Positions 1 to 27,279 are shown, counted from the stretch's first letter. The stretch: DNA of 64,000 nt from Patescibacteria group bacterium (GCA_004321885.1 SCQK01000013.1:64001-128000), one strand, 5' to 3'. Notes: generated from the letters alone by a model not told the origin. Program-made: numbers and translations.

Positions 1-596
1 AAGTACCGCAAGCCGTAAAATTTTCTGCCGGCAACAGCCAGATAGGTAAAATTCAGCAAACTGGGAATGGCGTAGGCGATTATCAGCCACATCAGCGGCC
101 AATGCAGAAGCAGGGCGGCCGTGCCCACAATCAGCGTGATGAACTGCGCGGCCACGATGGCGATTGATTCAAAAATCAAATTCTGGCGCGCGCGGAAAAA
201 ACTGTTGAACACCGACTGTAAACTGTCAAAAAACATCGTCACGCCAGAAATGTAAACCAAAAGCCTGGTCTCGGCCGCATACCCCAAAATATTGATAAAA
301 AAAATCGCCAACAAATAAGCGGCGACGCCGAAAAGCGCCTTGGTCCACAATATCGTATTAACGTAATTTTGCGCGTTGCTCGTGTCGCGCGCGACCTCGC
401 GGGTAAGCACCGGTGAAAGCCCGAAATCCGCCACCACGGTAAAAATAGTGGTAAAAGTGAGCGCGAAAAAATATTGTCCGGTATTGGCCGCCCCTAAAAG
501 GCGGGCAACCAAAATAAAATAAAAAAAAGAAATTATTTTTTGAAGCACCGAAGCCGCCGTCAAAAACGTGGTATTTTGCGCGACCGTATAAGACAT
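1..596 (-). CDS. Polysaccharide biosynthesis / oligosaccharide flippase family membrane protein, N-terminal part; the gene runs off the window start
   Basis: Minus-strand translation from ATG (cat at 594-596) gives MSYTVAQNTTFLTAASVLQKIISFFYFILVARLLGAANTGQYFFALTF..., a multi-TM N-terminus typical of Wzx/MOP-type flippases. No stop before position 1. Not in the ORF track because it is unterminated. Confidence 0.5.
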   Translation of the reverse strand, partial: MSYTVAQNTTFLTAASVLQKIISFFYFILVARLLGAANTGQYFFALTFTTIFTVVADFGLSPVLTREVARDTSNAQNYVNTILWTKALFGVAAYLLAIFFINILGYAAETRLLVYISGVTMFFDSLQSVFNSFFRARQNLIFESIAIVAAQFITLIVGTAALLLHWPLMWLIIAYAIPSLLNFTYLAVAGRKFYGLRY

Positions 597-666
597 AGAA
601 CCACTAATCTATATTCACTAATCACACTAATTGATGGCCACTTGTTACAATTTTACAGGAATTTGG

Positions 667-698
667 ACAAAAAAACAACCCCGACTAAGTCGGGGTTG
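667..698 (-). terminator. Rho-independent terminator downstream of rpsI: hairpin CAACCCCGACTAAGTCGGGGTTG followed by a T-run on the minus strand
   Basis: Perfect GC-rich inverted repeat at 676-698 followed (minus strand) by TTTTTTTGT. Same CCCGACTNAGTCGGG palindrome family seen elsewhere in the window. Confidence 0.6.
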
Positions 699-705
699 TG
701 TCGGA

Positions 706-1152
706 TTATCGTTTCGCCCACTGCGGAGCGCGTCTGGCTTTTTTGAGGCCGAATTTCTTCCGTTCTTTCACGCGCGGGTCGCGCGTCAGATACCCATTGG
801 TTTTTAGGGTTTTGCGCAGCTGTTCATCCCATTTGAGCAGGGCCCGCGCGATTCCGAGCTGAACCGCAACCGCCTGCCCTCTTTTGCCGCCGCCCTTAAC
901 TTTTACCGAAACGTCAAAATTCTTTTCTTTGGCAACGGCGCCAAGCGGCGCGACAACTAATTCGCGCTGTTCATATTCGGGAAAATAAATCTCCAACGGC
1001 TTGCCATTGATTGCAACATCTCCTTTTCCCAAACTCAACCGCACGCGCGCCGCGGCTGATTTGCGGCGCCCCACCGCGACGGCGGTTTCGCTTGCGGCAG
1101 GAGCTTTCACTGAAACCGGCCGCGCGCTTTTTTTCGCGGAAACTTTTGGCAT
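706..1152 (-). CDS. rpsI: 30S ribosomal protein S9
   Basis: GRRKSAAARVRL...VKGGGKRGQAVAVQLGIARALL...YLTRDPRVKERKKFGLKKARRAPQWAKR; classic S9 C-terminus. ATG at 1152 chosen; a GTG at 1173 overlapping the rplM stop is an alternative. Confidence 0.9.
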   Translation of the reverse strand: MPKVSAKKSARPVSVKAPAASETAVAVGRRKSAAARVRLSLGKGDVAINGKPLEIYFPEYEQRELVVAPLGAVAKEKNFDVSVKVKGGGKRGQAVAVQLGIARALLKWDEQLRKTLKTNGYLTRDPRVKERKKFGLKKARRAPQWAKR

Positions 1153-1169
1153 AAAACTTTGTTCAACTT

Positions 1170-1529
1170 TCACTTAAAACTAATCCTTTGCAGTCTTAAT
1201 TCCCTCATTTTGTTTTTCGGCAGCATTTTTGACACGGCCAAAATAATCGCTTTTTCCGGCTCGGCGGCCATAACCTCTTTGGCCGGCTTTTCTTTCAAGC
1301 CGCCCGGGTGCATGCTGTGATGCCGGTAAACCTTCTGCTGAATTTTTTTGCCGGAAAAATAAACCTGCCCGGCGTGGAGCACCCTCACGCGGTTATTTTT
1401 ATCCACATGCGGAGCATAATCCGGTTCATTTTTGCCCATCAAAAAGACACTTATTTCGGTGGCCACCCGGCCCACGGCCTTGCCGGCCGCGTCAACCTGA
1501 AATTTTTTGCCCTTAATTTTATTGCTCAT
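1170..1529 (-). CDS. rplM: 50S ribosomal protein L13
   Basis: MSNKIKGKKFQVDAAGKAVGRVATEISVFLMGKNEPDYAPHVD...; L13 family. ATGA overlap with the rplQ stop. Confidence 0.9.
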   Translation of the reverse strand: MSNKIKGKKFQVDAAGKAVGRVATEISVFLMGKNEPDYAPHVDKNNRVRVLHAGQVYFSGKKIQQKVYRHHSMHPGGLKEKPAKEVMAAEPEKAIILAVSKMLPKNKMRELRLQRISFK

Positions 1530-1876
1530 ACAAGCTCAATAATGGCTGCCTGGGCCGCGTCCCCTTTGCGCTCGCCCAAAGCCGTAACGCGCGTGTATCC
1601 GCCGACGCGCTCTTTGTAGCGACTAGCCAGCTCGCTCATCAATTTGCGCGCCGCCCTTGAACCGTAAAGCGCGCCCTCAATTTCGCGGCGCGCGGCCAAA
1701 TTTTGCTTTTTGGACTCGGTAATCAATTTTTCCACCAGCGGCCGCACTGCCTTGGCTTTGGCTTTGGTAGTTTTCACCTTTTCATACAAAATAACGCTAA
1801 CGGCCAAATTGGCGAGCAGTGAACGTCTGGCGGCGGTCTTTCTGTCTAAGGTAACCTTCTTTTTTTGATGACGCAT
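1526..1876 (-). CDS. rplQ: 50S ribosomal protein L17
   Basis: MRHQKKKVTLDRKTAARRSLLANLAVSVILYEKVKTTKAKAKAVRPLVEKLIT... matches the L17 N-terminus (MRHRKSGR...). ATG at 1874-1876; the track's upstream extension uses a TTG. Confidence 0.9.
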   Translation of the reverse strand: MRHQKKKVTLDRKTAARRSLLANLAVSVILYEKVKTTKAKAKAVRPLVEKLITESKKQNLAARREIEGALYGSRAARKLMSELASRYKERVGGYTRVTALGERKGDAAQAAIIELV

Positions 1877-1877
1877 A

Positions 1878-2711
1878 TCATTTCTTGACTTTCTTCTTCT
1901 CAATTTTTTCCTTTTTCACCTTCGCCTTTTTTTCTTTCTTGGGGGTTTCTTTTTTCTCTTCTTTCGCAAGGGCGTCTTTTTCTGTTTTCACTTCGGGAAC
2001 GGCTTCTTCTTCTATCTTGGCGTCGCCGGCCGCAGCCAAAATTATGGAAAAATGGTCCATCACGATTTGCGCGGCCTGCCTGATGGCCTCGTGGGGCGTC
2101 AACGCGCCGTTTGTTTCTATATTCAAAATCAATCTTTCAAAATTGGTGATGTCGCCCACGCGCGTGTATTCCACGCTGTAGCCCACGTCTTTAACCGGGC
2201 TGTAAATGGAATCAATCACGATGGTGCCCAGGTCGTAATGTTTTTTGTCTTTTTCCTCCACCGGCTTGAAGCCGCGCCCGCGGCCCGCGATAATTTCCAT
2301 TTCAAAAACACGCGGGCTGGTGAGATTGGCAATAACCAGGTCCTTGTTCATTATTTCAACATTGGCGTTGGGCTCGATGTCGCCGGCGAGTAGCGGCCCG
2401 GGGCCTTTTTTGGAAAAGGTCAGCACGACCGGCTCTTCACTAAATACTTTCAGCGCCAGCTGTTTTAAGTTCAAAATAATCTGCACTACGTCTTCTTTTG
2501 CGCCTTCCACGGCGCTAAACTCGTGCGCCACGCCCTTGATTTTGAAGGCCTCCACCGCGGCGCCCGGCAGCGAAGACAGCAAAACGCGGCGCAGGGCGTT
2601 ACCCAAAGTGGTGCCATAGCCGAAATAACAAGGTGAAATCAAAAACGCGCCCTTGGTTTTGGTTTCGCCTTCCATAAATTCCACCTTTGACGGTAAAAGT
2701 AAATTTTCCAT
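1878..2711 (-). CDS. rpoA: DNA-directed RNA polymerase alpha subunit, N-terminal domain only; the C-terminal domain is replaced by a Lys/Glu-rich tail
   Basis: MENLLLPSKVEFMEGETKTKGAFLISPCYFGYGTTLGNALRRVLLSSLPGAAV... is the alphaNTD. After about residue 235 the sequence becomes KIEEEAVPEVKTEKDALAKEEKKETPKKEKKAKVKKEKIEKKKVKK with no alphaCTD. ATG at 2709-2711; the track's longer ORF is a spurious 5' extension. Confidence 0.85.
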   Translation of the reverse strand: MENLLLPSKVEFMEGETKTKGAFLISPCYFGYGTTLGNALRRVLLSSLPGAAVEAFKIKGVAHEFSAVEGAKEDVVQIILNLKQLALKVFSEEPVVLTFSKKGPGPLLAGDIEPNANVEIMNKDLVIANLTSPRVFEMEIIAGRGRGFKPVEEKDKKHYDLGTIVIDSIYSPVKDVGYSVEYTRVGDITNFERLILNIETNGALTPHEAIRQAAQIVMDHFSIILAAAGDAKIEEEAVPEVKTEKDALAKEEKKETPKKEKKAKVKKEKIEKKKVKK

Positions 2712-2734
2712 ACTGTTCAAAATTTTACCCCTCC

Positions 2735-2767
2735 TCAATCCTCCCCTTAAATAAGGGGGGGATAAGC
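2735..2767. repeat. Palindromic element, family D (CCCCTCCTCAATCCTCCCCTTAAATAAGGGGGGG), intergenic between rpoA and rpsD
   Basis: Near-identical copy at 34084-34117; nested inverted repeat CCCCTTAA/TTAAGGGG. Confidence 0.6.
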
Positions 2768-2772
2768 AGAGT

Positions 2773-3399
2773 TTATCGCGAATAAAACTCAATGATAGTT
2801 TTGGCGTCAAAACCCGGCTCGGCAATCGTCGGCGCATTCAAAATTTTCGCGCGCAACTGGGACGGTTCCAGCCCCAGCCATCCGGGCGCCTCCAGCTTGG
2901 CCAGTTTTTCTTCCATTTTATCGTAAAGCAGGCTTTTCTTTTTGGATTCTTTAAGCGCGACCATGTCGCCGACCTTCACGCGGTAAGACGGAATATTGAC
3001 CGGACGGCCGTTTACGGACAGATGGCTGTGGCTCACGATTTGCCTGGCCGCGGCCCGGGATTTGCCCAAACCCATTCTAAACGCCACATTATCCAGGCGC
3101 GACTCCAGATAGGAAATCAAAAACTTGCCGGTGTTGCCGGTTTTCTTTGCGGCTTCGGCCACATAATTGGCAAACTGCCTTTCGCGCAGGCCGTACAATC
3201 GCTTGGCTTTTTGCTTCTCAAACAATTGTTTGCCGTAAACCGAGCGCTTGGAGTGCTTTTTGCTCGGCCCGTGCGCGCCCGGCGGATAATTGCGCTTTAC
3301 CATGGTGCATTTCGGCCCAAAACATTTTTCGCCTTTCAGCATCAGTTTAACGCCGGCTCCGCGGCACTGGGCGCATTTTGAATCTAACATTAAAACCAT
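2773..3399 (-). CDS. rpsD: 30S ribosomal protein S4
   Basis: N-terminal zinc-ribbon-like DSKCAQCRGAGVKLMLKGEKCFGPKCTMVKRNYPPGAHG aligns with Thermus-type S4 ([26 protein letters not shown]...). S4 body follows. Start Met approximate. Confidence 0.85.
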   Translation of the reverse strand: MVLMLDSKCAQCRGAGVKLMLKGEKCFGPKCTMVKRNYPPGAHGPSKKHSKRSVYGKQLFEKQKAKRLYGLRERQFANYVAEAAKKTGNTGKFLISYLESRLDNVAFRMGLGKSRAAARQIVSHSHLSVNGRPVNIPSYRVKVGDMVALKESKKKSLLYDKMEEKLAKLEAPGWLGLEPSQLRAKILNAPTIAEPGFDAKTIIEFYSR

Positions 3400-3406
3400 A
3401 AATCGT

Positions 3407-3436
3407 GTCATTCCCCCGACTAAGTCGGGGGAATCC
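3407..3436. repeat. Palindromic element, family A (GTCATTCCCCCGACTAAGTCGGGGGAATCC), intergenic between rpsK and rpsD
   Basis: Outer arms ATTCC/GGAAT enclosing the inner hairpin CCCCCGAC-TAA-GTCGGGGG. Copies at 6030-6060 and 19311-19341 lie in frame in alaS and mnmA. Confidence 0.7.
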
Positions 3437-3450
3437 AATCATGAATAAGT

Positions 3451-3924
3451 TTAAACTCTCCTTCGACCGGGCGGACGGCAGCCGTTATGCGGCATCGGTG
3501 TCACGTCGTTCACGGAAACCACGTTGAACCCGTTGATATGCAAAGCGCGAATAGCGCCCTCGCGCCCGCCGCCGATGCCCTTGACAAAAACATGCAAATC
3601 TTTCACACCAAAATCAGCCACCTTCCCGGCCACGTCTTTCACCACCATGCCGGCCGCATAGGGGGTGGCTTTCTTGGGACCCTTAAAGCCCACTTTTCCG
3701 GCCGATGACCAGCTCAAAATATCCCCGTTCGGATCGGCAATGGAAACAATGGTATTGTTATAGGAAGCCTGAATATACGCGTTGCCGTGCGCCACCTGTC
3801 TGACTGCTTTTTTCTTCTTGGATTTCACGACTTTTTTTGCGCCCGGTTTTATTTCCGCCGCCGGAACAGCCGCAGGCGCGCTATCGGCCGCTTCAATTAT
3901 TTTTGTCGCTTGTTCATCGGTCAT
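3451..3924 (-). CDS. rpsK: 30S ribosomal protein S11
   Basis: ...AHGNAYIQASYNNTIVSIADPNGDILSWSSAGKVGFKGPKKATPYAAGMVVKDVAGKVADFGVKDLHVFVKGIGGGREGAIRAL...; S11 family. Confidence 0.9.
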   Translation of the reverse strand: MTDEQATKIIEAADSAPAAVPAAEIKPGAKKVVKSKKKKAVRQVAHGNAYIQASYNNTIVSIADPNGDILSWSSAGKVGFKGPKKATPYAAGMVVKDVAGKVADFGVKDLHVFVKGIGGGREGAIRALHINGFNVVSVNDVTPMPHNGCRPPGRRRV

Positions 3925-3935
3925 ATCTCAATATA

Positions 3936-4322
3936 TCAAGTCTTTAACCCGGCCGGCTTGCGGCCGCTGCCCATGGTTTTGCGCACGTTGCCGCGCACGG
4001 TGCGGCTGTTGGTTTTGGTGCGCTGTCCGCGAACCGGCAAATGCTTCATGTGCCTGATGCCGCGATAGGCCTTAATGTCTTTCATGCGCTTGATATTGGA
4101 CATCACTTCGCGGCGCAAATCGCCTTCGGTCTTGTATTCTTTTTCCACAATCAAACGAATCTTATCTTCCTGTTCGTTGGTCAAATCCTTGACGCGGATG
4201 TCTTCGCTGATTTTGGCCTTGGCCAAGATTTTTTTCGCGGCCACGGCGCCCACGCCGTAAATATAGGGCAAAGACGCCACGATTCGTTTTTCTTTAGGTA
4301 TATTTATACCGGCGATACGCAT
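3936..4322 (-). CDS. rpsM: 30S ribosomal protein S13
   Basis: [33 protein letters not shown]...[27 protein letters not shown]; ATG at 4320-4322. The track ORF carries an N-terminal extension made of a (TAATTGG)x3 repeat. Confidence 0.9.
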
Positions 4323-4340
4323 AAAATCGTCATTCGTTAT

Positions 4341-4362
4341 TGGTAATTGGTAATTGGTAATT
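4341..4362. repeat. Tandem repeat (TAATTGG)x3 in the rpmJ-rpsM spacer
   Basis: ttggtaattggtaattggtaattgg read directly in the sequence. Confidence 0.6.
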
Positions 4363-4375
4363 GGCCATTTCAACG

Positions 4376-4489
4376 CTATCCCTGTCTTTGTTTATGTTTG
4401 GGATTAAAACAAATAACGCGGATTCTGCCTTTTCGGCGCACTATTTTGCACTTAGCGCAAATTTTCTTTACCGACGTTCGCACTTTCAT
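4376..4489 (-). CDS. rpmJ: 50S ribosomal protein L36
   Basis: [37 protein letters not shown] (37 aa) is canonical L36. The track ORF has a spurious upstream extension. Confidence 0.9.
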
Positions 4490-4612
4490 ACGGAAAACCA
4501 GTGTAAGAAAAACTCCAACCACTGCCGCGATATCCACGCCCGACGGCCCGTGCGCCGGACATTTGGCCGGAAAGCGCACGTCGGTCAAGCTACACCGCAA
4601 TGATTGGAATGT

Positions 4613-4831
4613 TTAAAATCTGTAAGTTATCCTTCCTTTGGTCAAATCGTATGGGGTCATTTCCAGCTTTATCTTATCTCCTATTCCCAGACGAATTTTA
4701 TTGAGCCGCATCTTGCCCGACAGATGAGCTATAATCACCTGGCCGCTTTCCAGTCTGACCTTAAAAGTGGCCGCAGGCAAAAGCTCCTCTACCGTCCCTT
4801 TTACCTCAATTACGTTTTTTTCGTTCGCCAT
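4613..4831 (-). CDS. infA: Translation initiation factor IF-1
   Basis: [72 protein letters not shown]; S1-like IF-1. Confidence 0.9.
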
Positions 4832-4881
4832 TTCCTAAGTTAGTTTTAACGAGATTATCTTACCCCAAAAGACAAAATCCG

Positions 4882-5349
4882 TCAAGGGGCGGCTGGCAAA
4901 TTATCCCCATGATTTCCGCTGTCATTCCCGCCCGCGAGTGGAAATCCATTTGCGTACACCCAGTATTTATACAATAAAAAATTCCAGGCCACGGCCACGG
5001 CAATATTTGCCACGCGCGCCAGGCGATAATCCAGGCCGAATTTTTCGTTAAAAAACCACATCCAGCCAATGGCGATGATGTAATTCAAAAACATTACCAC
5101 CAAAAAACGGGCCGCCTGCGTGGCGGCGCATCCGCGGGCTCCAAAAGACCAGTATTTATTCAGCAAAAAAACATAAGCCACCATAAACACCTGGTTTATG
5201 GCCACGGCCGCAACCGGACGCAGACGGGCATATTCTTTGAGCAAATAAAGCGAGCCGACGTCCAAAAACAAGGCGCTAAGCCCCACCAAAAAATATTTGG
5301 CAAACTGCGCTCGGCTGGCCCACAGTTTTTTTATAATATCTTTTATCAT
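4882..5349 (-). CDS. GtrA-like family membrane protein (putative polysaccharide-synthesis flippase component)
   Basis: MIKDIIKKLWASRAQFAKYFLVGLSALFLDVGSLYLL...YKYWVY fits the GtrA/DPM pattern. ATG at 5347-5349 overlaps the alaS stop (ATGA). Confidence 0.55.
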   Translation of the reverse strand: MIKDIIKKLWASRAQFAKYFLVGLSALFLDVGSLYLLKEYARLRPVAAVAINQVFMVAYVFLLNKYWSFGARGCAATQAARFLVVMFLNYIIAIGWMWFFNEKFGLDYRLARVANIAVAVAWNFLLYKYWVYANGFPLAGGNDSGNHGDNLPAAP

Positions 5350-7202
5350 TCTAATATCGCCTTTATCCTCCGCACGCCGGCGCTCACTGCCTCTTCTTTG
5401 ATAATGCGGAATTTTCCCAGCACACCCGTGTGCTCCACGTGCGGTCCGCCGCATATTTCGCGGCTAAAACATTGCGAGTTCTCGTGGGCTTCAACTTTGG
5501 CTTGCGAGTCGCCCACGGAATAGACCTTGACTTTTTGCCCGTAACGTGCTTCAAACAATCCAATGGCCCCCAATTTTTTGGCCTGTTCCACGCTCATTTC
5601 TTCAAAAACCACCGTATAATCGCGCTTTATGGCATAGTTGACAAGTTCTTCAATTTGTGCTTTCTGATTTTCAGTCAGCTTCTCGGGATGGCTAAAATCA
5701 AAGCGCAAACGCTCGGCCGTAATATTGCTGCCGCGCTGTGTCACATGCTCGCCCAACACCTTGCGCAGGGCGGCGTGGAGCAAATGCGTGGCCGTGTGGT
5801 ATTTTATGGACATCTCGCCGGTATCAGCCAGCCCGCCCTTGAATTTTTGCTCGGCGCCGGCCCGAGAAAGCTCCTGATGCTTTTTCATTTCCTCGTTAAA
5901 TCCTTTGATATCAACACTTAATCCTTTTTCCTCCGCCAATTCTATCGTCAGTTCAATCGGGAAGCCATAACTTTGATACAGGTCAAAAGCATCTTTCGCG
6001 GAAATTATTTTTCCGCCGTCAGTCACATTGTCATTCCCCCGACTAAGTACGGGGGAATCCAGTAACTCCTCAAATTTCGCCATTCCTCGTTCAATCGTAT
6101 TCCTAAATTTACTCTCCTCTTTTGCCATTTCGTTTATCACAAACTCGCGGTTGCGTTCCACTTCCGGATAAACATCGCTAAAAATTTTGATTGTTTCCTC
6201 GGCCATGGCCGAGGAAAAATTTTCTTTTATTCCCAGCAGTCGTCCGTGGCGCACGGCGCGGCGAATCAAACGTCTCACCACATACCCCTGGTCCACGTTG
6301 CTTGGCGCTATCCCCTTGTCATCGCCCATGATCATGGTGGCGGTACGCAAATGGTCGGCGATAACGCGCATTGATTTGGTGACTTCCGCGTTTTCCACGT
6401 ATTCGCGCCCGGAAATCTCTTCAATTTTTTGTATCAAAGGCCAAAAAGTGTCCACCTGAAAAACATCGGCAAAGCCGTTTAAGGCGACCAGCGTGCGCTC
6501 CAGACCCATGCCAGTGTCCACGTTCTTTTGTTTGAGGGGCGCGTAACTACCATCAACCAGTTTATTGTACTCCATGAAAACGTCGTTCCAAATTTCCAGC
6601 CAATTGTCTTCGTCGTTTTCCGGGTTGCTCTTTTTGGGTGGAAGCTCAGACTCCCCCATCCAATAAAACATCTCCGTGTCCGGACCGCACGGCCCGGTGG
6701 CTCCGGCCGGCCCCCACCAATTATTTTCTTTCGGTAAAAAACAAATTTTGTGCTCTGGCACGCCCGCTTCTTTCCAAATTTCGGCCGATTCTTCGTCGCG
6801 CTCGGCTGTTTTGCCTCCCTTAAACACGGACACGGCCAATTTCTTCGGGTCCAGCCCCAGCCATTTTTGGTCCGTTAAAAATTCCCAACTCCACTGTATC
6901 GCTTCCTTTTTAAAATAGTCACCCAGCGACCAGTTGCCGAGCATTTCAAAAAAAGTATCGTGGCGGTTGTCCCCCACTTCGTCAATATCCTGCAAGCGCG
7001 CGCATTTTTGCGCGCTGGCCAAACGCTTGCCCTCGGGATGTTTTTCGCCCAGTAAATACGGCACCAGCGGGTGCATGCCGGCGGTGGTAAACAAAACCGT
7101 CGGATCGTTTTCCGGAACGAGCGAGGCCGACAAAATCACCTTGTGTCCTTTACTGACAAAAAAATCCAAATATTTCTGCCGCAGTTGTTTTGATATGAGC
7201 AT
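5346..7202 (-). CDS. alaS: Alanyl-tRNA synthetase, short form lacking the C-terminal C-Ala domain; contains one in-frame palindromic insert
   Basis: Class II catalytic core (FTTAGMHPLVPYLLG, FFEMLGNWSLGDYFK), editing-domain motifs HTATHLLHAALRKVLGEHVTQRGS and CGGPHVEHTG. 618 aa against about 870 typical. Insert LDSPVLSRGND is encoded by the family A element at 6030-6060. Confidence 0.85.
   Translation of the reverse strand: MLISKQLRQKYLDFFVSKGHKVILSASLVPENDPTVLFTTAGMHPLVPYLLGEKHPEGKRLASAQKCARLQDIDEVGDNRHDTFFEMLGNWSLGDYFKKEAIQWSWEFLTDQKWLGLDPKKLAVSVFKGGKTAERDEESAEIWKEAGVPEHKICFLPKENNWWGPAGATGPCGPDTEMFYWMGESELPPKKSNPENDEDNWLEIWNDVFMEYNKLVDGSYAPLKQKNVDTGMGLERTLVALNGFADVFQVDTFWPLIQKIEEISGREYVENAEVTKSMRVIADHLRTATMIMGDDKGIAPSNVDQGYVVRRLIRRAVRHGRLLGIKENFSSAMAEETIKIFSDVYPEVERNREFVINEMAKEESKFRNTIERGMAKFEELLDSPVLSRGNDNVTDGGKIISAKDAFDLYQSYGFPIELTIELAEEKGLSVDIKGFNEEMKKHQELSRAGAEQKFKGGLADTGEMSIKYHTATHLLHAALRKVLGEHVTQRGSNITAERLRFDFSHPEKLTENQKAQIEELVNYAIKRDYTVVFEEMSVEQAKKLGAIGLFEARYGQKVKVYSVGDSQAKVEAHENSQCFSREICGGPHVEHTGVLGKFRIIKEEAVSAGVRRIKAILE
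6030..6060. repeat. Palindromic element, family A, in frame within alaS
   Basis: gtcattcccccgactaagtacgggggaatcc; the reading frame continues through it. Confidence 0.7.
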
Positions 7203-7219
7203 AGCGATAAAAAAATCGC

Positions 7220-7582
7220 CTACTTTACCAAGCGATTTTTGCCCAACAAATTTAAAATTTTAACAATCTCTTTCTTTAATTTTGGTATATCGTTCTCAAC
7301 GATTTTCCAAACCAGATTAATATCAACTCCAAAATATTCGTGAATGAGGACGTCCCGCGTACCGGCAATTTTTTTCCATTCTACCTGAGGATGCTTCTTT
7401 TTAAAACCAGCTGGCAAGCTTTTGCATGCTTCACCGATTATTTCCAAGCGGCGAATGATCGCGTCTTGAATTGTGGTTGAATCAAAAAAAAATTTTGGCG
7501 TTAATTTCGCCGCATTTTTTTCTATTTCTTCAATACTGGTTAAAATATATTCAAGAAAAAATTCAGGCTGTCTTTTTGCCAT
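7220..7582 (-). CDS. hepT: HepT-like (DUF86) nucleotidyltransferase substrate-binding toxin
   Basis: Rx4HxY motif in RDVLIHEY; size and 20-nt overlap with the upstream MntA-like gene are typical of HepT/MntA pairs. Confidence 0.7.
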   Translation of the reverse strand: MAKRQPEFFLEYILTSIEEIEKNAAKLTPKFFFDSTTIQDAIIRRLEIIGEACKSLPAGFKKKHPQVEWKKIAGTRDVLIHEYFGVDINLVWKIVENDIPKLKKEIVKILNLLGKNRLVK

Positions 7583-7859
7583 AAATTACCTTTTGCCCGC
7601 TCAAAATCGTCTTTCGCAATAACGGGTTGATGCCGCCGTATGAAAGCACGTCTACTCGCAAACCGAGTTTGTCTTCCAGCTCTAATTTTAAACCAACCAA
7701 ATCTAATAATGATTTATTTTTTTGTAATTTTACAAGGAGATCCAAGTCGCTTTTTTTGGTCTGTTCGCCTCGGGCGAAAGACCCAAAAATCGCGGCCTTT
7801 GTCACCCCGTTTTTTTTAAGAATCGGAAAAATTTTTTTGTTTAACGTTTTTAAGGTCAT
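7563..7859 (-). CDS. mntA: MntA-like minimal nucleotidyltransferase antitoxin
   Basis: GSFARGEQTKKSDLDLLV = GSx9-13DxD nucleotidyltransferase motif; ATG at 7857-7859. Confidence 0.7.
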   Translation of the reverse strand: MTLKTLNKKIFPILKKNGVTKAAIFGSFARGEQTKKSDLDLLVKLQKNKSLLDLVGLKLELEDKLGLRVDVLSYGGINPLLRKTILSGQKVIYGKKTA

Positions 7860-7941
7860 AGTTGAAATTATTACCAATTAGACACCAACCCATTAGGAAA
7901 GCTAAATCCATTATTATTCTAACCCTTTTTTGCTTTTTTGT

Positions 7942-9000
7942 CTATTTTTTCTTCAACGTCGTTATCGGCCTACTTTGAGTAATGTATACTGTACCGCTTT
8001 CCATGGCCCATTCAATATCACAAGGGAAACCATAGTGTTGCTCAATTTTCTTGCACACCTTGGCCACTTCAATAATTTCTTTGCCGGTCAGCTTCTGCTT
8101 ACCCCCCTCTTTCTCACTCAACTCAATCCATTTGTTGGAGTCTCTCCCCTTTATAAGGGGAGAGTTAGTGAGGGGTAATTTCGCTTTCACCAACTTCTTC
8201 GTCTGTACTCCAACATTTATATCTACAATACTCATTTCGCTTTTGGAAACAATATAACTGTCGGGTGTAATCTGGCCGCTCACAATCGCTTCGCCCAATC
8301 CAAACCCGGCCTCAATAATCATCTGGTCGGGGTCTTCAGTAACCGGGTGCACAGTAAAGGCGATGCCCGAAATTTCCGACTGCACCATTTTCTGCACCAC
8401 TACCGCGACCGAAACATAATGGTCAATCAGTTTTTTTTCGTGACGATAAAAAATCGCGCGGGGGGTGAAAAGCGAAGACCAGCATTGCTTAACTTTTTCA
8501 ACAACGTTAACGCGCGTGGTGTTCAAATAGGTTTCCAGCTCCCCGGCCCAACTGGCCACGTCGCTGTCCTCGGCCGTAGCGCTGCTTCTCACCGCCACCA
8601 GGTTGTCATCCTGAACTTGTTTCAGGATCCCCGTTCGCCGTCTGTCATTCAGACCCCGCTTAGCGGGGGAGGAATCCCTCCCGCCCAACTCATCAAACGC
8701 CCCCAATATCTCATTCTCCAAATCTTTCGGCATGGGCGTGTCGTGTATCACATCGCGCAAAACATTACTCGCCTTGTCCACGCTGTTGGTGTCTTCGGGA
8801 TCCACGTCAGCCAATCGCGCCTCAATCTCTTCTTTCAATTTCGTTTCCTCAATAAATCTGTCAAACGCGCTCGCCAATACCACAAAACCCGGCGGCACAC
8901 GCAGTTTCGCTTTAGTCATCTCGCCAAGCGAAGCGCCCTTCCCGCCCGCGCTGGCCACATCTTTCTTGGAAATATCCTTAAAAAATTTTATGTGAGGCAT
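7942..9000 (-). CDS. Stand-alone PEP synthase / pyruvate phosphate dikinase N-terminal nucleotide-binding (PPDK_N, ATP-grasp) domain protein; carries three in-frame palindromic inserts
   Basis: VASAGGKGASLGEM, RSSATAEDSDVASWAGELETYLN, AVVVQKMVQSEISGIAFTVHPVT are PPDK_N hallmarks. No phosphohistidine or PEP-binding domain follows. Inserts [32 protein letters not shown] (elements at 8605-8630 and 8644-8680) and NSPLIKGRDSN (8143-8175). Confidence 0.8.
   Translation of the reverse strand: MPHIKFFKDISKKDVASAGGKGASLGEMTKAKLRVPPGFVVLASAFDRFIEETKLKEEIEARLADVDPEDTNSVDKASNVLRDVIHDTPMPKDLENEILGAFDELGGRDSSPAKRGLNDRRRTGILKQVQDDNLVAVRSSATAEDSDVASWAGELETYLNTTRVNVVEKVKQCWSSLFTPRAIFYRHEKKLIDHYVSVAVVVQKMVQSEISGIAFTVHPVTEDPDQMIIEAGFGLGEAIVSGQITPDSYIVSKSEMSIVDINVGVQTKKLVKAKLPLTNSPLIKGRDSNKWIELSEKEGGKQKLTGKEIIEVAKVCKKIEQHYGFPCDIEWAMESGTVYITQSRPITTLKKK
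8143..8175. repeat. Palindromic element, family D (CTCTCCCCTTTATAAGGGGAGAGTTAGTGAGGGG), in frame in the PPDK_N gene
   Basis: Reverse-complement copy at 22373-22405 in the PEP-synthase-like gene, where it encodes SPLYKGRVSEG. Confidence 0.7.
8605..8630. repeat. Palindromic element, family B (GTCATCCTGAACTTGTTTCAGGATCC), in frame in the PPDK_N gene
   Basis: Hairpin ATCCTGAA-CTTGT-TTCAGGAT; further copies at 30589, 31039, 44822, 54761 and inverted variants at 54820 and 55176. Confidence 0.7.
8644..8680. repeat. Palindromic element, family A variant (GTCATTCAGACCCCGCTTAGCGGGGGAGGAATCCCTC), in frame in the PPDK_N gene
   Basis: Similar copy at 43602-43640 in dnaX. Confidence 0.65.
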
Positions 9001-9036
9001 ATTTCAAAAGCAGTCGCTTTGGGCGACTGCCACGAA

Positions 9037-9453
9037 CTATTTAATATATTCACCGATGATCTTCATAAACTTTTTTATATCTCCACTTTCCGCTTTTAGC
9101 TCGGTCAAAAATCGTTTCATGTCAATGTCTTCGTACTTGTGCACTATCCTGTTGCGCAAACCGACTATCGGAGCCAGTTTTAGAGCAAACGCCATGGGCA
9201 AAATTTTATTCTGGCCAAGCGTGATAAATGTGCTTTGATAATCTTCGGGCGCCTGCAAATTTTTCTCGGCGATAATATGCGTGTTGATATCTACCATACA
9301 GTCCACAATGAGCTGAAACAAGCGCTCAATCGCGTGCAATTTCGTCTCATCCTGAATTAAATCAAAAACATCGTCTTCTAAAAGCGCGTCCAACTCTTTC
9401 TGATACCCGCCGATGTCGGTGAGTTTGTTGTAAATAAGCGTTTTGTTGGTCAT
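9037..9453 (-). CDS. hepT: HepT-like (DUF86) toxin, second pair
   Basis: Rx4HxY motif in RNRIVHKY; immediately downstream of a MntA-like gene. ATG at 9451-9453. Confidence 0.65.
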   Translation of the reverse strand: MTNKTLIYNKLTDIGGYQKELDALLEDDVFDLIQDETKLHAIERLFQLIVDCMVDINTHIIAEKNLQAPEDYQSTFITLGQNKILPMAFALKLAPIVGLRNRIVHKYEDIDMKRFLTELKAESGDIKKFMKIIGEYIK

Positions 9454-9462
9454 ACACACAAT

Positions 9463-9864
9463 TTAAGCCAAAAATTTTTGAAGTTGTTTATGCCTTAATT
9501 CATAAAGCGGTTTCGCCTCAACATATCTCTTAAACGCGTACATGCGAAATTTGGCAAACTCGCCGACTTTATCCTCGTATAGAGGAACTCCGTCTCGCCC
9601 TATTTGCAGCATAAGTAACGGCGACGCTCCGCGCGCGTTCACCACTTCCACGTCGCCGCGGCCAAATATATGGCAAAAATTTTCCCGCAACCCGGCTTCT
9701 TCATAATAAGAAATTGGCCCTTTTGTTTTGACGGCAATATCAATGTCGCTGTATTTATGCGTTTTTCCGCGCGCGGCCGAACCAAATAATACGACGAAAT
9801 CAAGACCAGCTTGTTTAGCCGCCTTTTTTATCGCTGTCTTTGTTGTTGAATTTATGACTTTCAT
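9463..9864 (-). CDS. mntA: MntA-like nucleotidyltransferase antitoxin, second pair
   Basis: GSAARGKTHKYSDIDIAV nucleotidyltransferase motif. Confidence 0.7.
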   Translation of the reverse strand: MKVINSTTKTAIKKAAKQAGLDFVVLFGSAARGKTHKYSDIDIAVKTKGPISYYEEAGLRENFCHIFGRGDVEVVNARGASPLLMLQIGRDGVPLYEDKVGEFAKFRMYAFKRYVEAKPLYELRHKQLQKFLA

Positions 9865-9908
9865 GATAAAAGTATAGCATTTTTGCAGTATTTTGCAAAT
9901 TTTTGTCT

Positions 9909-10229
9909 TTAATCAATTTTTCTCACAATTCCCTTCTCCGCGTCCACCTCCACCATATCGCCATTTTTAATCTTCCACAAAATTTCTTCCGAAAGACCGA
10001 CAATCGCCGGTTTGTTATTTTCGCGCGCCACAATAGCCGCGTGAGAAGTTACCCCGCCATGCACTGCCAAAATCGCCTTCACTTTTTTAGCCAGCGCCGC
10101 GTTTGGTTTGACTTGATTCAATAACACAATATTCTCTTCCGTGCAATGAGCAAATTGGTCAGTATGATTAATAATACAAACCAGCCCGCTCGCCTTGCCG
10201 GGACAAGCAGAAATTCCTTTGAATTGCAT
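9909..10229 (-). CDS. Stand-alone PEP-utilizing enzyme mobile (phosphohistidine swivel) domain protein
   Basis: HGGVTSHAAIVARENNKPAIVGL ... GDMVEVDAEKGIVRKI; 106 aa, only the PF00391-type swivel domain. Confidence 0.8.
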   Translation of the reverse strand: MQFKGISACPGKASGLVCIINHTDQFAHCTEENIVLLNQVKPNAALAKKVKAILAVHGGVTSHAAIVARENNKPAIVGLSEEILWKIKNGDMVEVDAEKGIVRKID

Positions 10230-10275
10230 AAATTATAAATAATGGCTTTGTTCTGCCATTATTTTACTCTTACTC

Positions 10276-10304
10276 TTGACAAAAGTCAAAAAATGTGCTA
10301 TATT
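10276..10304 (+). promoter_or_regulatory. Sigma70-type promoter TTGACA-N17-TATATT upstream of the high-GC histidine-phosphatase gene
   Basis: ttgaca (10276-10281), 17-nt spacer, tatatt (10299-10304). About 190-nt AT-rich leader, then RBS AGGAGAG and ATG at 10493. Confidence 0.55.
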
Positions 10305-10492
10305 GTTTTGTTGTGGTTTATTGGAAAATTGCGCTTTATTGCGCTATTTTCCGGCTATAACGTGAGTGTGTTGTTTTTTGAAAATTTGAGGTTTCTTTGG
10401 CCAGAAGTTGAATGCGTAATGCGAATATCTTTTGTTCGTAATGCGCAGTCAACTTCCACGCCCCACCGATGGGGCACACCAAGGAGAGGAAG

Positions 10493-11140
10493 ATGAAGAC
10501 CACGGTGCTGTTCACGAGGCACGAGGACCACAAAGACCAGGTCCTCCTGCCGGACGCGGTCGAGAGAGCGCGCATGCGCGGTCTGCGCCTGCGTGAGAAG
10601 GACTACAAGATCGACCGGGTCAAGGGCTCGCCCCTGCCCCGCGCCGATGCCACCGCCACCGAGATGATGACCGGCTACGGCCAGACCACGGACATCGAGC
10701 GCGAGGCGCGCCTCGGCGACTTCAAATCCGATCCAAGGACGCCGAAGGAGGCGGTGAAGGAGCTCAAGGCGAACGCGGTGGCCAAGCACGGGGATGACTC
10801 CGACTCCAACTTGGCCAAGGAGCTCATCAACACCCCCGCCCTGCACGACCTCCTCTTCGCCCGCGCGAAGGAAGGCGCCGAGGCCCTGCTGGAGATGGCC
10901 GCCGCCAACCCGGGCAAGACCATCCTGGCCGTGAGCCACGGCGTGGCCCGCATGGAGATCGTCCTGCGCTACCTGCGGGGCGTCCGCGACACCGCGCTCC
11001 TGGACATCGTCCCGGAGCTCATCGACCGCGGCGAGGTCATCAAGCTGACCTTCGAGGTCTCGGAAGAGTGGGACGACCTCGCCGAGACGCACCCGGCGCG
11101 GGCCGAGTTCGTCTCGGCCGAGCCCCTCCCGCTCCTCTAA
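10493..11140 (+). CDS. Histidine phosphatase superfamily (phosphoglycerate-mutase-like) protein encoded in a high-GC islet
   Basis: LFTRHEDH (RHG-type motif) near the N-terminus and ILAVSHGVARMEIVL (second catalytic His). RBS ccAAGGAGAGgaagATG. Local GC about 65% against about 40% background; the minus-strand 290-aa ORF is an antisense artefact. Confidence 0.65.
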   Translation: MKTTVLFTRHEDHKDQVLLPDAVERARMRGLRLREKDYKIDRVKGSPLPRADATATEMMTGYGQTTDIEREARLGDFKSDPRTPKEAVKELKANAVAKHGDDSDSNLAKELINTPALHDLLFARAKEGAEALLEMAAANPGKTILAVSHGVARMEIVLRYLRGVRDTALLDIVPELIDRGEVIKLTFEVSEEWDDLAETHPARAEFVSAEPLPLL

Positions 11141-11262
11141 CCCCCCATCTCGCCCGCGTTCCGCGGGCAACTCCAAACACAACTCACTGACACGGCGGTA
11201 CGCATCGCGCGACCGCCCAACTCTCAATGCTTTTCAACGAAAAACATTGAGCGTTACAAAAA

Positions 11263-11293
11263 ATCCTTCGCGTTTACGAAGGATTTTTTGTTT
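11263..11293 (+). terminator. Rho-independent terminator after the high-GC gene: ATCCTTCGCGTTTACGAAGGAT plus T-run
   Basis: Perfect stem TCCTTCG/CGAAGGA followed by TTTTTTGTTTCT. Confidence 0.7.
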
Positions 11294-11319
11294 CTCAATT
11301 TTAATACCAGCGCGCTATT

Positions 11320-12828
11320 TCAAATTCTCCTCACCACCCCTTTATACCCATCCACCTCCAACCAATCCCCATCTTTCACCACCTCGCGCACAAACCTGGT
11401 TTGTATTACTCCCGGAATTTTGGCTTCCCGCGCAAGCGTGGCCGGGTGCGTCGTAATACCATGCCCGCCATCGCAAACCAAACCTGCCGCTTTCATAATA
11501 GCTGTGGAGAAACTGGGTACCACTTGAATACTGACGATAATATCTCCCTTCTGCACTTTATCGCATTCATCGGGATGCAAAATTACACGCGCTGGCCCCT
11601 TGGCGACTCCGGGCGAAACCGGCATACCGGTAAACTCTTTAGCGTTCTTATCTACTTTACAGAAAAGATTAAACAATCTTTCGGCCTGACTTCTCTCAAC
11701 TATCTTCATTGGCTGTCCGCGCCGACAATACCACAACATCAGTTCTATCCTTTCGTTAATATCAAAAGATAATTCTTTTCCTTTGATCAAAGCCGTTCTT
11801 ATCTCTTCTATTTTTAAGTGCCTGACCTGATTCAGACTCAAATAGAATCTGCGGCCAATCTCTTTCAAAACGCTATCAAAATAATACAAAGATTCGGAAA
11901 CGTAGCGCTTGCGCAATTCTTTCAAGTAAGCCACATGGCGCATGGAATTGAAAGAATCTTGTTCTTGCTTGCTGAAGTTCAATCTGGCCAAATATCTCTT
12001 TCTTTCGCTTTCATTTTTAGCCAAGTTACCGACCAATTTCTCATATTCCTTCCTCACATTGAGTATGAGATAGCCGGTCAAACGTTGAACTATCGATCTA
12101 AAATCCAAAACGGAGTCTTCGTAATCACGCGTTACCCAAAAATAATTTCTTTCATGCTTCCTTATAAGATTACTAAGTTTAGAATCTTTTTTAATGGCGT
12201 CTATATCTTTGGTTGTGACCAGAGAAACCCAATGTTTATCGGCTAAAATCCTTAACGCCAATTCAAACAACGCCTTCAATTCAACAGTCGCCACCATGGC
12301 GCTGGGTTCGCGCGTTAAAATGTCCAAAACTACCGCGGCCTTCCTTTTGTCCGCCACTTTGCCTTCCACCATACGTAGCAGGTCGGCGATATAATGGTCT
12401 TCCGTAATCCAAATCCATCCGTACCGAGCGTACACCTCTTTGTATTTTTTTTCATAATCAGCGAAAAATTCGTACAATGTCTGATTGCTTATTCTTTCTA
12501 AATTAGAATTGCCTGCTTTCTTGGCAAAAGCCACTAAACGCGCACCGTAGATATGCTGTTCTTTAATGAACTTGCCGACCAATTTTGAATCATAATGAAT
12601 TTTATCGGACATGTCGCGAGCAACCTCTTCGTAACCCTTCCTACCAATAAACATGTAGTGTACGTTATGCGTGCAAAAATAAAGTACCTCTCCGAGGGCA
12701 AAGCCGACGGCACTTTTCATCTCATTGCAGACAGCCTCCATTGAAAAATAATTAGGAAACGGACTGACGCGTTGGCGTTGAGACTTAAATACCCAGTGGT
12801 CGATATCCGTTGAAAATTTAACTGGCAT
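11320..12828 (-). CDS. Paralog 1: unknown N-terminal domain (about 390 aa) fused to a C-terminal PEP-utilizing swivel domain (variant His loop)
   Basis: C-terminus MPVSPGVAKGPARVILHPDECDKVQKGDIIVSIQVVPSFSTAIMKAAGLVCDGGHGITTHPATLAREAKIPGVIQT...GDWLEVDGYKGVVRRI aligns with the other paralogs. N-terminus has no PPDK_N motifs. Confidence 0.7.
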   Translation of the reverse strand: MPVKFSTDIDHWVFKSQRQRVSPFPNYFSMEAVCNEMKSAVGFALGEVLYFCTHNVHYMFIGRKGYEEVARDMSDKIHYDSKLVGKFIKEQHIYGARLVAFAKKAGNSNLERISNQTLYEFFADYEKKYKEVYARYGWIWITEDHYIADLLRMVEGKVADKRKAAVVLDILTREPSAMVATVELKALFELALRILADKHWVSLVTTKDIDAIKKDSKLSNLIRKHERNYFWVTRDYEDSVLDFRSIVQRLTGYLILNVRKEYEKLVGNLAKNESERKRYLARLNFSKQEQDSFNSMRHVAYLKELRKRYVSESLYYFDSVLKEIGRRFYLSLNQVRHLKIEEIRTALIKGKELSFDINERIELMLWYCRRGQPMKIVERSQAERLFNLFCKVDKNAKEFTGMPVSPGVAKGPARVILHPDECDKVQKGDIIVSIQVVPSFSTAIMKAAGLVCDGGHGITTHPATLAREAKIPGVIQTRFVREVVKDGDWLEVDGYKGVVRRI

Positions 12829-12858: not shown

Positions 12859-14082
12859 TTAAATTTTTCTCACAATCCCTTTCTCCGCGTCCACCTCCAC
12901 CATATCGCCGTCTTTTAAAACCTTAGTCGCGATTTTCGTGCCGATAATACAAGGTATACCTAACTCACGGCTGACGATGGCAGCATGCGCGGTTAACCCT
13001 CCCTCGTCGGTCACGATAGCGGCCGCCTTTTTGACCGCCGTTATCAACGACGGCGTGGTCATGGATGAAACTAAAATATCACCCTTCTGCATCTTGACCT
13101 GATCTTCCCGCGTGATAACAATTTTGACCTTGCCGCGCACCTTTCCCTTGGATGCCACGAAGCCAATAATTTTATCCACCACCGCTGTTTTGTCTTCTTC
13201 AAAATAAAGCTTAAAATAATTCTGCGCCTTTTCGCCGCTTAAAATTTTTAATTTTCTCCGGCTGATCAGCAATATATAAAATTGTTGGCGGCGTTTCATT
13301 TCGCTTTCGGGCATTTTCTTGCCACCCAAATAATCGCGCAAGCTGACCGGATCGTACCAATCCAATTCAGCCAATTCTTTTTCGTTGTTGATGACCTTTC
13401 GCAAATGATCTAATAGCTGATCGTAAAGATAAGACGACACTCTTTCCCCCATTTCGTAAAAGTAAGTGAACCATGATAAAATTTCCGCAAGCTCTTTTTC
13501 TTTGGCGGTTAATTTTAGCCGTCGTGCAAGATCCTCTCTTTTTCTAATCAATCGCGGACTAGAACAATGCAATTGGTTTAATAGCCCGACAACCGCTTTC
13601 GGCACTGATAAAGTTGATAAGACATCGTCCAGCTCGCGCGCCGATACTTTCGCCGCCAGTAATTTTTTCAGCCGCTGTGCAACAGACTGCTCACCCCAGT
13701 AGCTATAGACAATAGCGCCACGCCCATAAGCGTGATATTTCATGAACAAACTGATGTAACTCCTCAAATCTTTGCGGGTCAAATTTTTATTCTCGTACTT
13801 TCTGCCCCAGTTATAACCTTGGATTAGCAACTTAACTATAATGTCACCCAAACGAGAAATATTTTTCCCTTTAAATTCTCGCAGAATAATTTTCTGCTGT
13901 CTTTTTTTGTCCGCGGGGTCAAAGTATAACGAGGTAACTCTGCCGCGGCCGACAATCGGACTTCTGGCTATTTTCGCCCGCCCAAATTTACCAATGCTCT
14001 GCGCATAAGCAATGGTGCGAAATCCGCGATCAAGCAAAGTATTTTCACGTGTTAATTGTTTGACGTATTTGACTTTGGACAT
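12859..14082 (-). CDS. Paralog 2: unknown N-terminal domain (about 300 aa) plus C-terminal PEP-utilizing swivel domain
   Basis: ...GKVKIVITREDQVKMQKGDILVSSMTTPSLITAVKKAAAIVTDEGGLTAHAAIVSRELGIPCIIGTKIATKVLKDGDMVEVDAEKGIVRKI. Confidence 0.75.
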   Translation of the reverse strand: MSKVKYVKQLTRENTLLDRGFRTIAYAQSIGKFGRAKIARSPIVGRGRVTSLYFDPADKKRQQKIILREFKGKNISRLGDIIVKLLIQGYNWGRKYENKNLTRKDLRSYISLFMKYHAYGRGAIVYSYWGEQSVAQRLKKLLAAKVSARELDDVLSTLSVPKAVVGLLNQLHCSSPRLIRKREDLARRLKLTAKEKELAEILSWFTYFYEMGERVSSYLYDQLLDHLRKVINNEKELAELDWYDPVSLRDYLGGKKMPESEMKRRQQFYILLISRRKLKILSGEKAQNYFKLYFEEDKTAVVDKIIGFVASKGKVRGKVKIVITREDQVKMQKGDILVSSMTTPSLITAVKKAAAIVTDEGGLTAHAAIVSRELGIPCIIGTKIATKVLKDGDMVEVDAEKGIVRKI

Positions 14083-20253: not shown

Positions 20254-20565
20254 TTACCTATCGCGCCTGGCCCGCAGACATTCTCTGCAGTAAACCGGCT
20301 TGTCGCCGGTGGGCTGGAAGGGCAACTCGGTGATCTTGCCTCCGCACTGGGCGCAGGTCAAGTCCACCTGGTACATCTGGCGCGGAGCGCCAAACGAGCG
20401 TCCGCCGCCGCTCGGGCGGGTCTGGCGGTACGCGCGATTGCATTCATTGCAATACACGGGTCTGTCGCCGGACGGCTGGAAGGGCAGCTGTGAAATATGG
20501 GTCCCGCATTTGCCGCAGGAAAGGTCCACATCGTACATCTGCCTAGTGCTGTTGTCAAAAGCCAT
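20254..20565 (-). CDS. Small tandem zinc-ribbon protein (two CxxC-x17-CxxC repeats) in a high-GC islet
   Basis: QMYDVDLSCGKCGTHISQLPFQPSGDRPVYCNECNR and QMYQVDLTCAQCGGKITELPFQPTGDKPVYCRECLR form an internal duplication. Local GC far above background. Confidence 0.55.
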   Translation of the reverse strand: MAFDNSTRQMYDVDLSCGKCGTHISQLPFQPSGDRPVYCNECNRAYRQTRPSGGGRSFGAPRQMYQVDLTCAQCGGKITELPFQPTGDKPVYCRECLRARRDR

Positions 20566-20881
20566 AACTTTGCTGTTTTTGTTCCCAAAATGTGTTTTGA
20601 GATTGTTTTAGTCGACCTATTTTGGGAACTTTGGCCGAAAACCGGCCTTTTTTAACGTTTCCAAAATTTGTTAAATTATATCACAAAAGCCTGATTTTGT
20701 CAATATCCCCCTAATTTTATCCACAACTATTCCACCAGGCGGCTATTGACAAAAAAACTTATTTGTGATACATATCTGGTATCTTACAATCAAGCCCGGA
20801 GAATGTTTGGCATAAGGAGAAGCGTCCCCTCCTTCGCTTCTTTCCTTTTGTCAAACATCTTCCGGGTTTTTTGTTTGCAGA

Positions 20882-24419: not shown

Positions 24420-27279
<2,860 letters not shown>

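Follow-up and report, generated by a model that had tools for sequence, protein, structure and literature searches.

[quoted passage not shown] The gene stands in a single-copy context and comes from a Magasanikbacteria-like bacterium within the Parcubacteria group (Patescibacteria/CPR). It is nearly certain that its product has lost the whole helix-hairpin-helix alphaCTD of ~70 aa, in place of which stands a tail of ~47 residues. The alphaCTD is part of the textbook bacterial transcription machinery, where it serves UP elements as well as class I and many class II activators. The central observation of the initial annotation, an alpha subunit without an alphaCTD that ends in a lysine-rich tail, is confirmed, and the interpretation offered there is partly supported.

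The rpoA gene and its domain content

The coding sequence, including the stop codon, occupies positions 1878 to 2711 of the minus strand, with an ATG at 2711 and a TGA at 1880 to 1878. Translation of this ORF yields a protein of 277 aa (MENLLLPSKVEF...EEAVPEVKTEKDALAKEEKKETPKKEKKAKVKKEKIEKKKVKK) with matches in Pfam, to TIGR02027 and among PDB structures; its lysine-rich end, EEAVPEVKTEKDALAKEEKKETPKKEKKAKVKKEKIEKKKVKK, is exactly the one quoted in the initial annotation. The coordinates given there also stand, with two amendments: the gene is on the minus strand, and its start may lie slightly upstream. An alternative TTG start at 2720, which gives a product of 280 aa and is the one called in a 100%-identical database protein (P0001), may be the true start, and the CTD finding is unaffected by this choice. 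The genes for S13, S11, S4, alpha and L17 follow one another on the minus strand, in the canonical rpsM-rpsK-rpsD-rpoA-rplQ context seen in the ORF list and translations; rpsD (2773 to 3390, minus strand), rpsK, rpsM, rpmJ and infA are all found upstream of rpoA. On the other side, rplQ (1526 to 1876, minus strand) begins with an ATG at 1876 to 1874 (product MRHQKKK..., translation starting MRHQKKKVTLDRK). A single base separates this ATG from the rpoA stop codon, so that rplQ bounds rpoA and leaves no space for a downstream CTD in any frame. The gap between rpsD and rpoA (2712 to 2772, minus strand) contains a G/C-rich hairpin (UCCCCCCC...GGGGAGGA; -24.4 kcal/mol, z = -1.96 relative to shuffled sequences, a marginal value) that pairs a GGAGG-rich stretch immediately 5' of the rpoA start and could be a translational-control or processing element.

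The N-terminal domain (alphaNTD; residues 1 to 230, positions 2022 to 2711, minus strand), the dimerization domain and platform for beta/beta' assembly, is intact. Pfam detects PF01193 (4.4e-23, residues 27 to 221), interrupted by the insert domain PF01000 (5.3e-31, residues 57 to 171). An AlphaFold2 model run on a 66-sequence alignment is confident throughout this domain (pLDDT 75 to 93), and its last helix comprises residues 206 to 230. Given the high conservation of the alphaNTD, the window RpoA would be expected to assemble as alpha2 with beta and beta'. The protein scores 266.7 bits against TIGR02027, above the equivalog cut-off of 227.8, and is borderline for NF003519 (277.3 versus a cut-off of 277); the remaining PRK05182 submodels score below their own cut-offs because the CTD part is missing. 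Alignments to the NCBIfam rpoA models stop at about model position 257 of 320, and those to solved alpha subunits in the PDB (E values of about 1e-50 to 1e-60) cover only residues ~3 to 253, that is, the NTD and linker. The C-terminal helix-hairpin-helix domain of RpoA (alphaCTD, PF03118) is absent from the window protein, even at E ≤ 1.

The missing domain was also sought outside the annotated gene. A profile was built from the 85 CTDs detected among database representatives. It matched strongly in each of the 53 control loci that bear a CTD and gave no hit in the window protein or in any of the six frames of the 64-kb window, where the best match (E = 0.55) falls within a 684-aa ORF at 24420 to 26474. 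The same profile found no alphaCTD in the ~3-kb flanks of 27 related loci that lack the domain, and a smaller profile, made from three CTD sequences, likewise had no six-frame match in the window. The claims that no CTD is hidden behind a frameshift and that no separate alphaCTD ORF accompanies the gene therefore hold for the window, where rplQ follows one base past the stop codon.

Distribution of alpha subunits without a CTD

The truncated architecture is shared by a large set of homologs. The best 120 database proteins (63 to 100% identity, 253 to 307 aa) each contain PF01000 and PF01193 alone. Their named members are assigned to Candidatus Magasanikbacteria or Patescibacteria, the nearest named ones at 63 to 76% identity, and NCBI places Magasanikiibacteriota within the Parcubacteria group. 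With a retained alphaNTD, no alphaCTD and relatives in the Parcubacteria group, the window protein has the features of the known CTD-less class. After clustering at 50% identity, the ~10 closest representatives all lack the CTD. A search for related loci, seeded with an alignment of 13 closer alpha sequences, returned 80 species-level genome loci, 27 of which are from Patescibacteria without a CTD, including Magasanikbacteria, Uhrbacteria and Falkowbacteria; in all 27, rplQ starts between -17 and +74 nt from the rpoA stop. A further search, seeded by a CTD-less alpha placed elsewhere in the NTD tree, identified a second clade of another 120 proteins (238 to 284 aa), some of them named Candidatus Yanofskybacteria at NCBI, and again all without a CTD.

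A normal CTD is kept in Moranbacteria, Azambacteria, one Saccharibacteria metagenome-assembled genome (MAG) and several unnamed Patescibacteria, as it is in all of the Firmicutes, Chloroflexota and Verrucomicrobia controls. Loss of the CTD as a universal trait of the CPR is accordingly rejected, and, since other Patescibacteria keep the domain, its loss is derived. CTD-less alphas occur in more than one place on a neighbor-joining tree, which is based on a single protein and has low resolution, so the loss is possibly recurrent. The comparison of these homologs demonstrates that the truncation, present in 120 plus 120 proteins and 27 loci and absent from the non-CPR controls, is not an error and has become fixed in two or more large clades of Parcubacteria.

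Several records carry labels at odds with their sequences. A number of MAG records among L001, L005 to L007, L010, L013, L015, L016, L019 and L054 are labeled "uncultured Gammaproteobacteria bacterium," although their rpoA and rplQ are plainly Patescibacteria-like. Similarly, two Yanofskybacteria-like loci bear the unreliable label "uncultured Candidatus Saccharibacteria"; their relatives are named Yanofskybacteria or Patescibacteria, and no claim is made here of CTD loss in Saccharibacteria. A different architecture, a tandem double alphaNTD with one CTD, is found in three database proteins, P0121 (569 aa), P0123 (526 aa) and P0145 (664 aa). P0121 is an exact internal duplication of a Firmicute-like alpha and is therefore probably an assembly artifact.

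These data bear on two ways in which the absence of the CTD might be only apparent. That an otherwise normal rpoA has been truncated by a frameshift from sequencing or assembly, or is a pseudogene, is an explanation practically without credit: the same architecture is found in 240 database clusters and in 27 independent species genomes, the NTD is strongly conserved and rplQ abuts the stop codon. The comparative data refute it. It is also highly improbable that the gene is split, with the alphaCTD encoded elsewhere, separately or as a fusion, and acting in trans. Such an arrangement has some room, as inspection covered a 64-kb stretch of the genome plus, in the 27 relatives, about 3 kb on each side of the gene; against it, the profile that recognizes all 53 controls picks up no CTD signal in the window or the flanks, whatever the frame. 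Furthermore, the CTD needs to be tethered to the polymerase for its known functions, and we know of no free-standing alphaCTD.

The charge-polarized tail and its possible role

Beyond residue 230, the window protein consists of an acidic spacer followed by a lysine patch. The spacer (residues 231 to 250, AKIEEEAVPEVKTEKDALAK; positions 1962 to 2021, minus strand) is modeled without secondary structure at pLDDT <50, and its E-rich composition is conserved in homologs. The terminal patch (residues 251 to 277, EEKKETPKKEKKAKVKKEKIEKKKVKK; positions 1881 to 1961, minus strand), read directly from the sequence, has 15 K and 6 E among its 27 residues. Over the tail as a whole (residues 231 to 277), AlphaFold2 assigns pLDDT values of 43 to 52; with no secondary structure past residue 230, a single alpha-helix or a folded domain was rejected, and the tail is predicted to be intrinsically disordered. 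Among 120 close homologs, tail length varies from 30 to 69 aa and mean pairwise identity is ~35%, compared with 76% for the NTD. The composition is 24% K, 21% E and 16% A. What remains constant is the polarity, an E-rich, acidic first part leading to a terminal basic patch (e.g., KPKKAKKAAKKKA). The last 15 residues hold a median of 8 K/R, the same median as in the second CTD-less clade. Every tail has its K/R C-terminal to its D/E, significantly so relative to shuffled sequences in 118 of 121.

Such an end is not a general habit of the proteome, a possibility rejected since rpoA alone, among ~70 ORFs in the window, has seven or more K/R in its last 15 residues. Low-complexity extensions that resemble the alpha tail, running from alanine-rich and acidic to lysine-rich, are present at the N termini of two ribosomal proteins, S11 (3451 to 3924, minus strand; e.g., MTDEQATKIIEAADSAPAAVPAAEIKPGAKKVVKSKKKK) and S9 (706 to 1173, minus strand), and part of the tail signal could therefore reflect a lineage-wide compositional habit. 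Elsewhere in the window, five minus-strand ORFs (9909 to 10229, 11320 to 12828, 12859 to 14082, 14880 to 16361 and 16358 to 17836) have nearly the same motif, DMVEVDAxKGIVRKI, at the C terminus, which points to a family of tandem paralogs.

Other CTD-less alphas end in variants of this design. The Yanofskybacteria-like tails are shorter (median, 28 aa), again with a basic end, often KPKKRGRKKK. The ending KKRGRPKK occurs at four loci (L010:3001-3819, L011:3001-3819, L019:2962-3870 and L025:3001-3873) and in three database proteins (P0128, P0129 and P0268). In all five of those tested (P0129, P0268, L010, L019 and L025), the AT_hook family (PF02178) matches the extreme C terminus, at scores of 8 to 13 bits that are below the threshold of 17.4. 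AT-hooks, like the alphaCTD, bind the minor groove of AT-rich DNA. Whereas KKRGRPKK in the relatives resembles an AT-hook, the window tail is a plain lysine patch, in which inspection of the sequence shows no RGRP core. A third type of ending is found in P0131 (332 aa, on a 2,964-bp Logan contig), a CTD-less alpha in which an acidic linker is followed by two HeH/SAP-like repeats (SSDWLKDDLIEYAEKENIPV... and SSWLKDELVEYAEQQDVEV...). These repeats give matches to SAP_new25, Ish1 and Rho_N in Pfam, all subthreshold, and may be an alternative DNA-binding module in place of the CTD. Finally, Uhrbacteria-like, Falkowbacteria-like and some other CTD-less relatives (L007, L008, L012, L013 and L015 to L018) have short, purely acidic or neutral tails and no basic patch, which indicates that the patch is not needed for life without a CTD.

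Some functional consequences of the loss can be derived from previous work, in which truncated alpha kept assembly and basal transcription and lost the responses to UP elements and activators (PMC8321222). It follows from this established knowledge that alphaCTD-dependent UP-element recognition and class I-type activation should not be able to work as they do in E. coli. The retained alphaNTD would nucleate alpha2-beta-beta' assembly, and the resulting polymerase would neither read UP elements through an alphaCTD nor be recruited by activators that dock on one. Initiation would then have to rest on contacts of sigma with the -35 and -10 elements, together with regulators whose target is sigma, the alphaNTD or beta/beta'. 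As for the tail, its acidic spacer might act as a flexible, DNA-repelled tether that emerges at the usual site of the CTD linker and places the lysine patch, with a charge of +9, near the DNA upstream of the -35 element, the usual location of the alphaCTD. There the patch might make a weak electrostatic contact, sequence independent or biased toward AT-rich DNA and the minor groove, that stabilizes promoter complexes. The tail would thereby be a minimal substitute for DNA contact, one of the two functions of the alphaCTD, and not for activator docking.

That the basic tail contacts DNA at all is roughly an even call. Such a role is favored by the conserved acidic-to-basic polarity and by the basic or DNA-motif endings that recur among separate lineages without the CTD; the existence of lineages with neither CTD nor basic patch and the poor conservation of the tail in sequence and length argue against it. 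An experimental precedent exists in archaea, where the K-rich C-terminal tail of Rpo13 is needed for nonspecific binding of double-stranded DNA (PMC3479171). The combined reading, in which the CTD has been lost and a tethered basic patch makes weak, nonspecific contact with upstream DNA, is the one toward which we lean.

Two other accounts of the tail have to be set against this reading. It is unlikely, in our estimate, that the tail is a functionless remnant, a former linker that drifted to low-complexity E/K-rich sequence after deletion of the CTD and whose 3' lysine codons (AAA/AAG) persist by compositional bias or as a purine-rich translation-initiation region of rplQ. The disorder, fast evolution and variable length of the tail would fit this history, as would the CTD-less lineages without a basic patch and the K-rich low-complexity extensions on other proteins of the operon; in addition, with 1 nt between the rpoA stop and the rplQ start, the last rpoA codons overlap the ribosome-binding region of rplQ. 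A ribosome-binding site takes only ~6 nt, however, compared with 10 to 15 lysine codons, and the patch persists in several loci where rplQ lies 30 to 74 nt downstream. Drift would also have to explain an acidic-then-basic order that 118 of 121 tails retain although their identity is only ~35%, the return of the basic end in a separate CTD-less clade and of AT-hook-like or HeH-like endings elsewhere, and the lack of any other C terminus in the window that resembles the rpoA tail.

The patch could instead be functional with a target other than upstream promoter DNA, to which only a small share of the probability is given. The patch might bind RNA, either nascent or ribosomal, or the nucleoid at large, which would concentrate the polymerase on DNA. 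It might also bind a partner protein that is acidic or, as an autoinhibitory switch, the acidic spacer of the same tail. Lysine patches are indeed promiscuous polyanion binders, the adjacent spacer could fold back onto the patch, and the model, with no predicted structure for the tail, leaves its position on the holoenzyme unfixed. Nevertheless, alignment with PDB alpha subunits indicates that the tail leaves the alphaNTD where the linker of the upstream-DNA-binding CTD does so in all solved holoenzymes, and the AT-hook-like and HeH/SAP-like endings of relatives are motifs for duplex DNA.

If contact with upstream DNA is nonetheless the function, a broader and rather doubtful generalization would be that several Parcubacterial lineages have swapped the folded 70-aa minor-groove reader for minimal tethered DNA-binding peptides, a "mini-CTD." Tentatively, these peptides would be the lysine patch in the window protein, KKRGRPKK or KPKKRGRKKK in others and the HeH/SAP-like repeats in one. 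If true, AT-rich upstream DNA would still be stimulatory with a "mini-CTD," and alphaCTD-mediated recruitment of activators would be abolished. A considerable portion of the candidate phyla radiation would then have a distinct, simplified way of recognizing bacterial promoters.

The initial annotation had associated the absence of the CTD with strong consensus promoters and short leaders. Near-consensus -35/-10 pairs were not enriched in positions 1 to 12000 (18 sites versus 13.5 ± 3.8). A stricter scan of the whole window (≥10 of 12 matching positions) returned 29 sites compared with 10.8 ± 3.5 in shuffled sequences, an enrichment of ~2.7-fold; 13 of the 29 are in noncoding DNA, which makes up ~10% of the window, and several are 3 to 42 nt from a start codon. 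For example, a perfect TTGACA-17-TGnTATAAT (20675 to 20703, minus strand) lies in an intergenic region, and the ORF at 20254 to 20565 follows about 110 nt downstream. Judging from these matches, canonical, fairly strong sigma-70-type promoters with short leaders seem to be in use. This is consistent with the promoter remark of the initial annotation and establishes no link between these promoters and the loss of the CTD. An Rfam scan of the window identified five tRNAs and no rRNA operon.

Relation to known alpha subunits and charge-polarized tails

Compared with canonical RpoA (329 aa in E. coli and 314 aa in B. subtilis), the window protein has the same orthologous alphaNTD, passes TIGR02027 and is encoded at the same position between rpsD and rplQ; it differs in having no PF03118 and ending in a disordered acidic/lysine tail. 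As the whole alphaCTD is missing, so are the 265, 261 and 287 determinants, which serve UP-element DNA, sigma region 4 and activators. In this respect the protein resembles the E. coli alpha mutants truncated to residues 1 to 235 or 1 to 256 (Igarashi and Ishihama 1991, Hayward et al. 1991, and Ross et al. 1993, as cited in PMC8321222), and core assembly and basal sigma-directed transcription would be expected of it as well. Unlike those mutants, it is natural and evolutionarily stable, and it has an added basic tail. The window protein also shares an alphaNTD-like fold without a CTD with archaeal Rpo3 (RpoD) and eukaryotic Rpb3/AC40, alpha homologs that naturally lack the domain. The archaeal RpoD models fail on it by a wide margin (NF001988, 28.4 bits versus a cut-off of 153; NF011548, 22.1 versus 194), while bacterial models give 250 to 277 bits, which points to secondary loss and not to an archaeal-type subunit.

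A disordered, charge-polarized segment on an RNA polymerase subunit also has a counterpart in Rpo13 of Sulfolobus, with its E-rich N-terminal end and K-rich C-terminal tail (PMC3479171). The alpha tail is of the same kind, with pLDDT below 52 and significant polarity in 118 of 121 tails. The two are not homologous in sequence, and the DNA binding demonstrated for Rpo13 is a proposal for the alpha tail. Their positions differ as well, with Rpo13 at the channel for downstream DNA and the alpha tail emerging on the upstream side.

The literature has little on these alphas. A 2025 comparative study calls the alphaCTD ubiquitous in Bacteria (PMC12531629). CTD-less alphas have been reported for Hodgkinia, Tremblaya and Euglena chloroplasts, with Parcubacteria covered in one sentence (PMC8321222), the only one on CPR alphaCTD loss that our literature search found. 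For Parcubacteria, that paper cites Nelson and Stegen 2015, the text of which has nothing on RNA polymerase and merely lists rpoA as a core gene. CTD loss itself has therefore been mentioned in passing. The conserved charge-polarized tail and its AT-hook-like and HeH-like variants, of which the search found no description, appear to be undescribed so far.

The recurrence of basic and AT-hook-like endings raises the hypothesis that a peptide can replace the DNA-contact function of the CTD. These findings are relevant to the inference of promoters and regulons in CPR genomes, to heterologous expression of CPR genes and to models of a minimal transcription apparatus. Like the CTD-less alphas reported previously, the window protein keeps the NTD and has lost the CTD, in a setting of small genomes with few regulators (PMC8321222). 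It departs from that account in its conserved charge-polarized tail, with a K patch, AT-hook-like or HeH-like ending, which is absent from that paper. It differs from the reduced-genome cases, too, in that the truncation is fixed across large clades of free-standing episymbionts or ultrasmall bacteria with ~1-Mb genomes. Because whole clades of Patescibacteria live without the alphaCTD, alphaCTD-dependent regulation is dispensable in nature beyond organelles and extreme endosymbionts.
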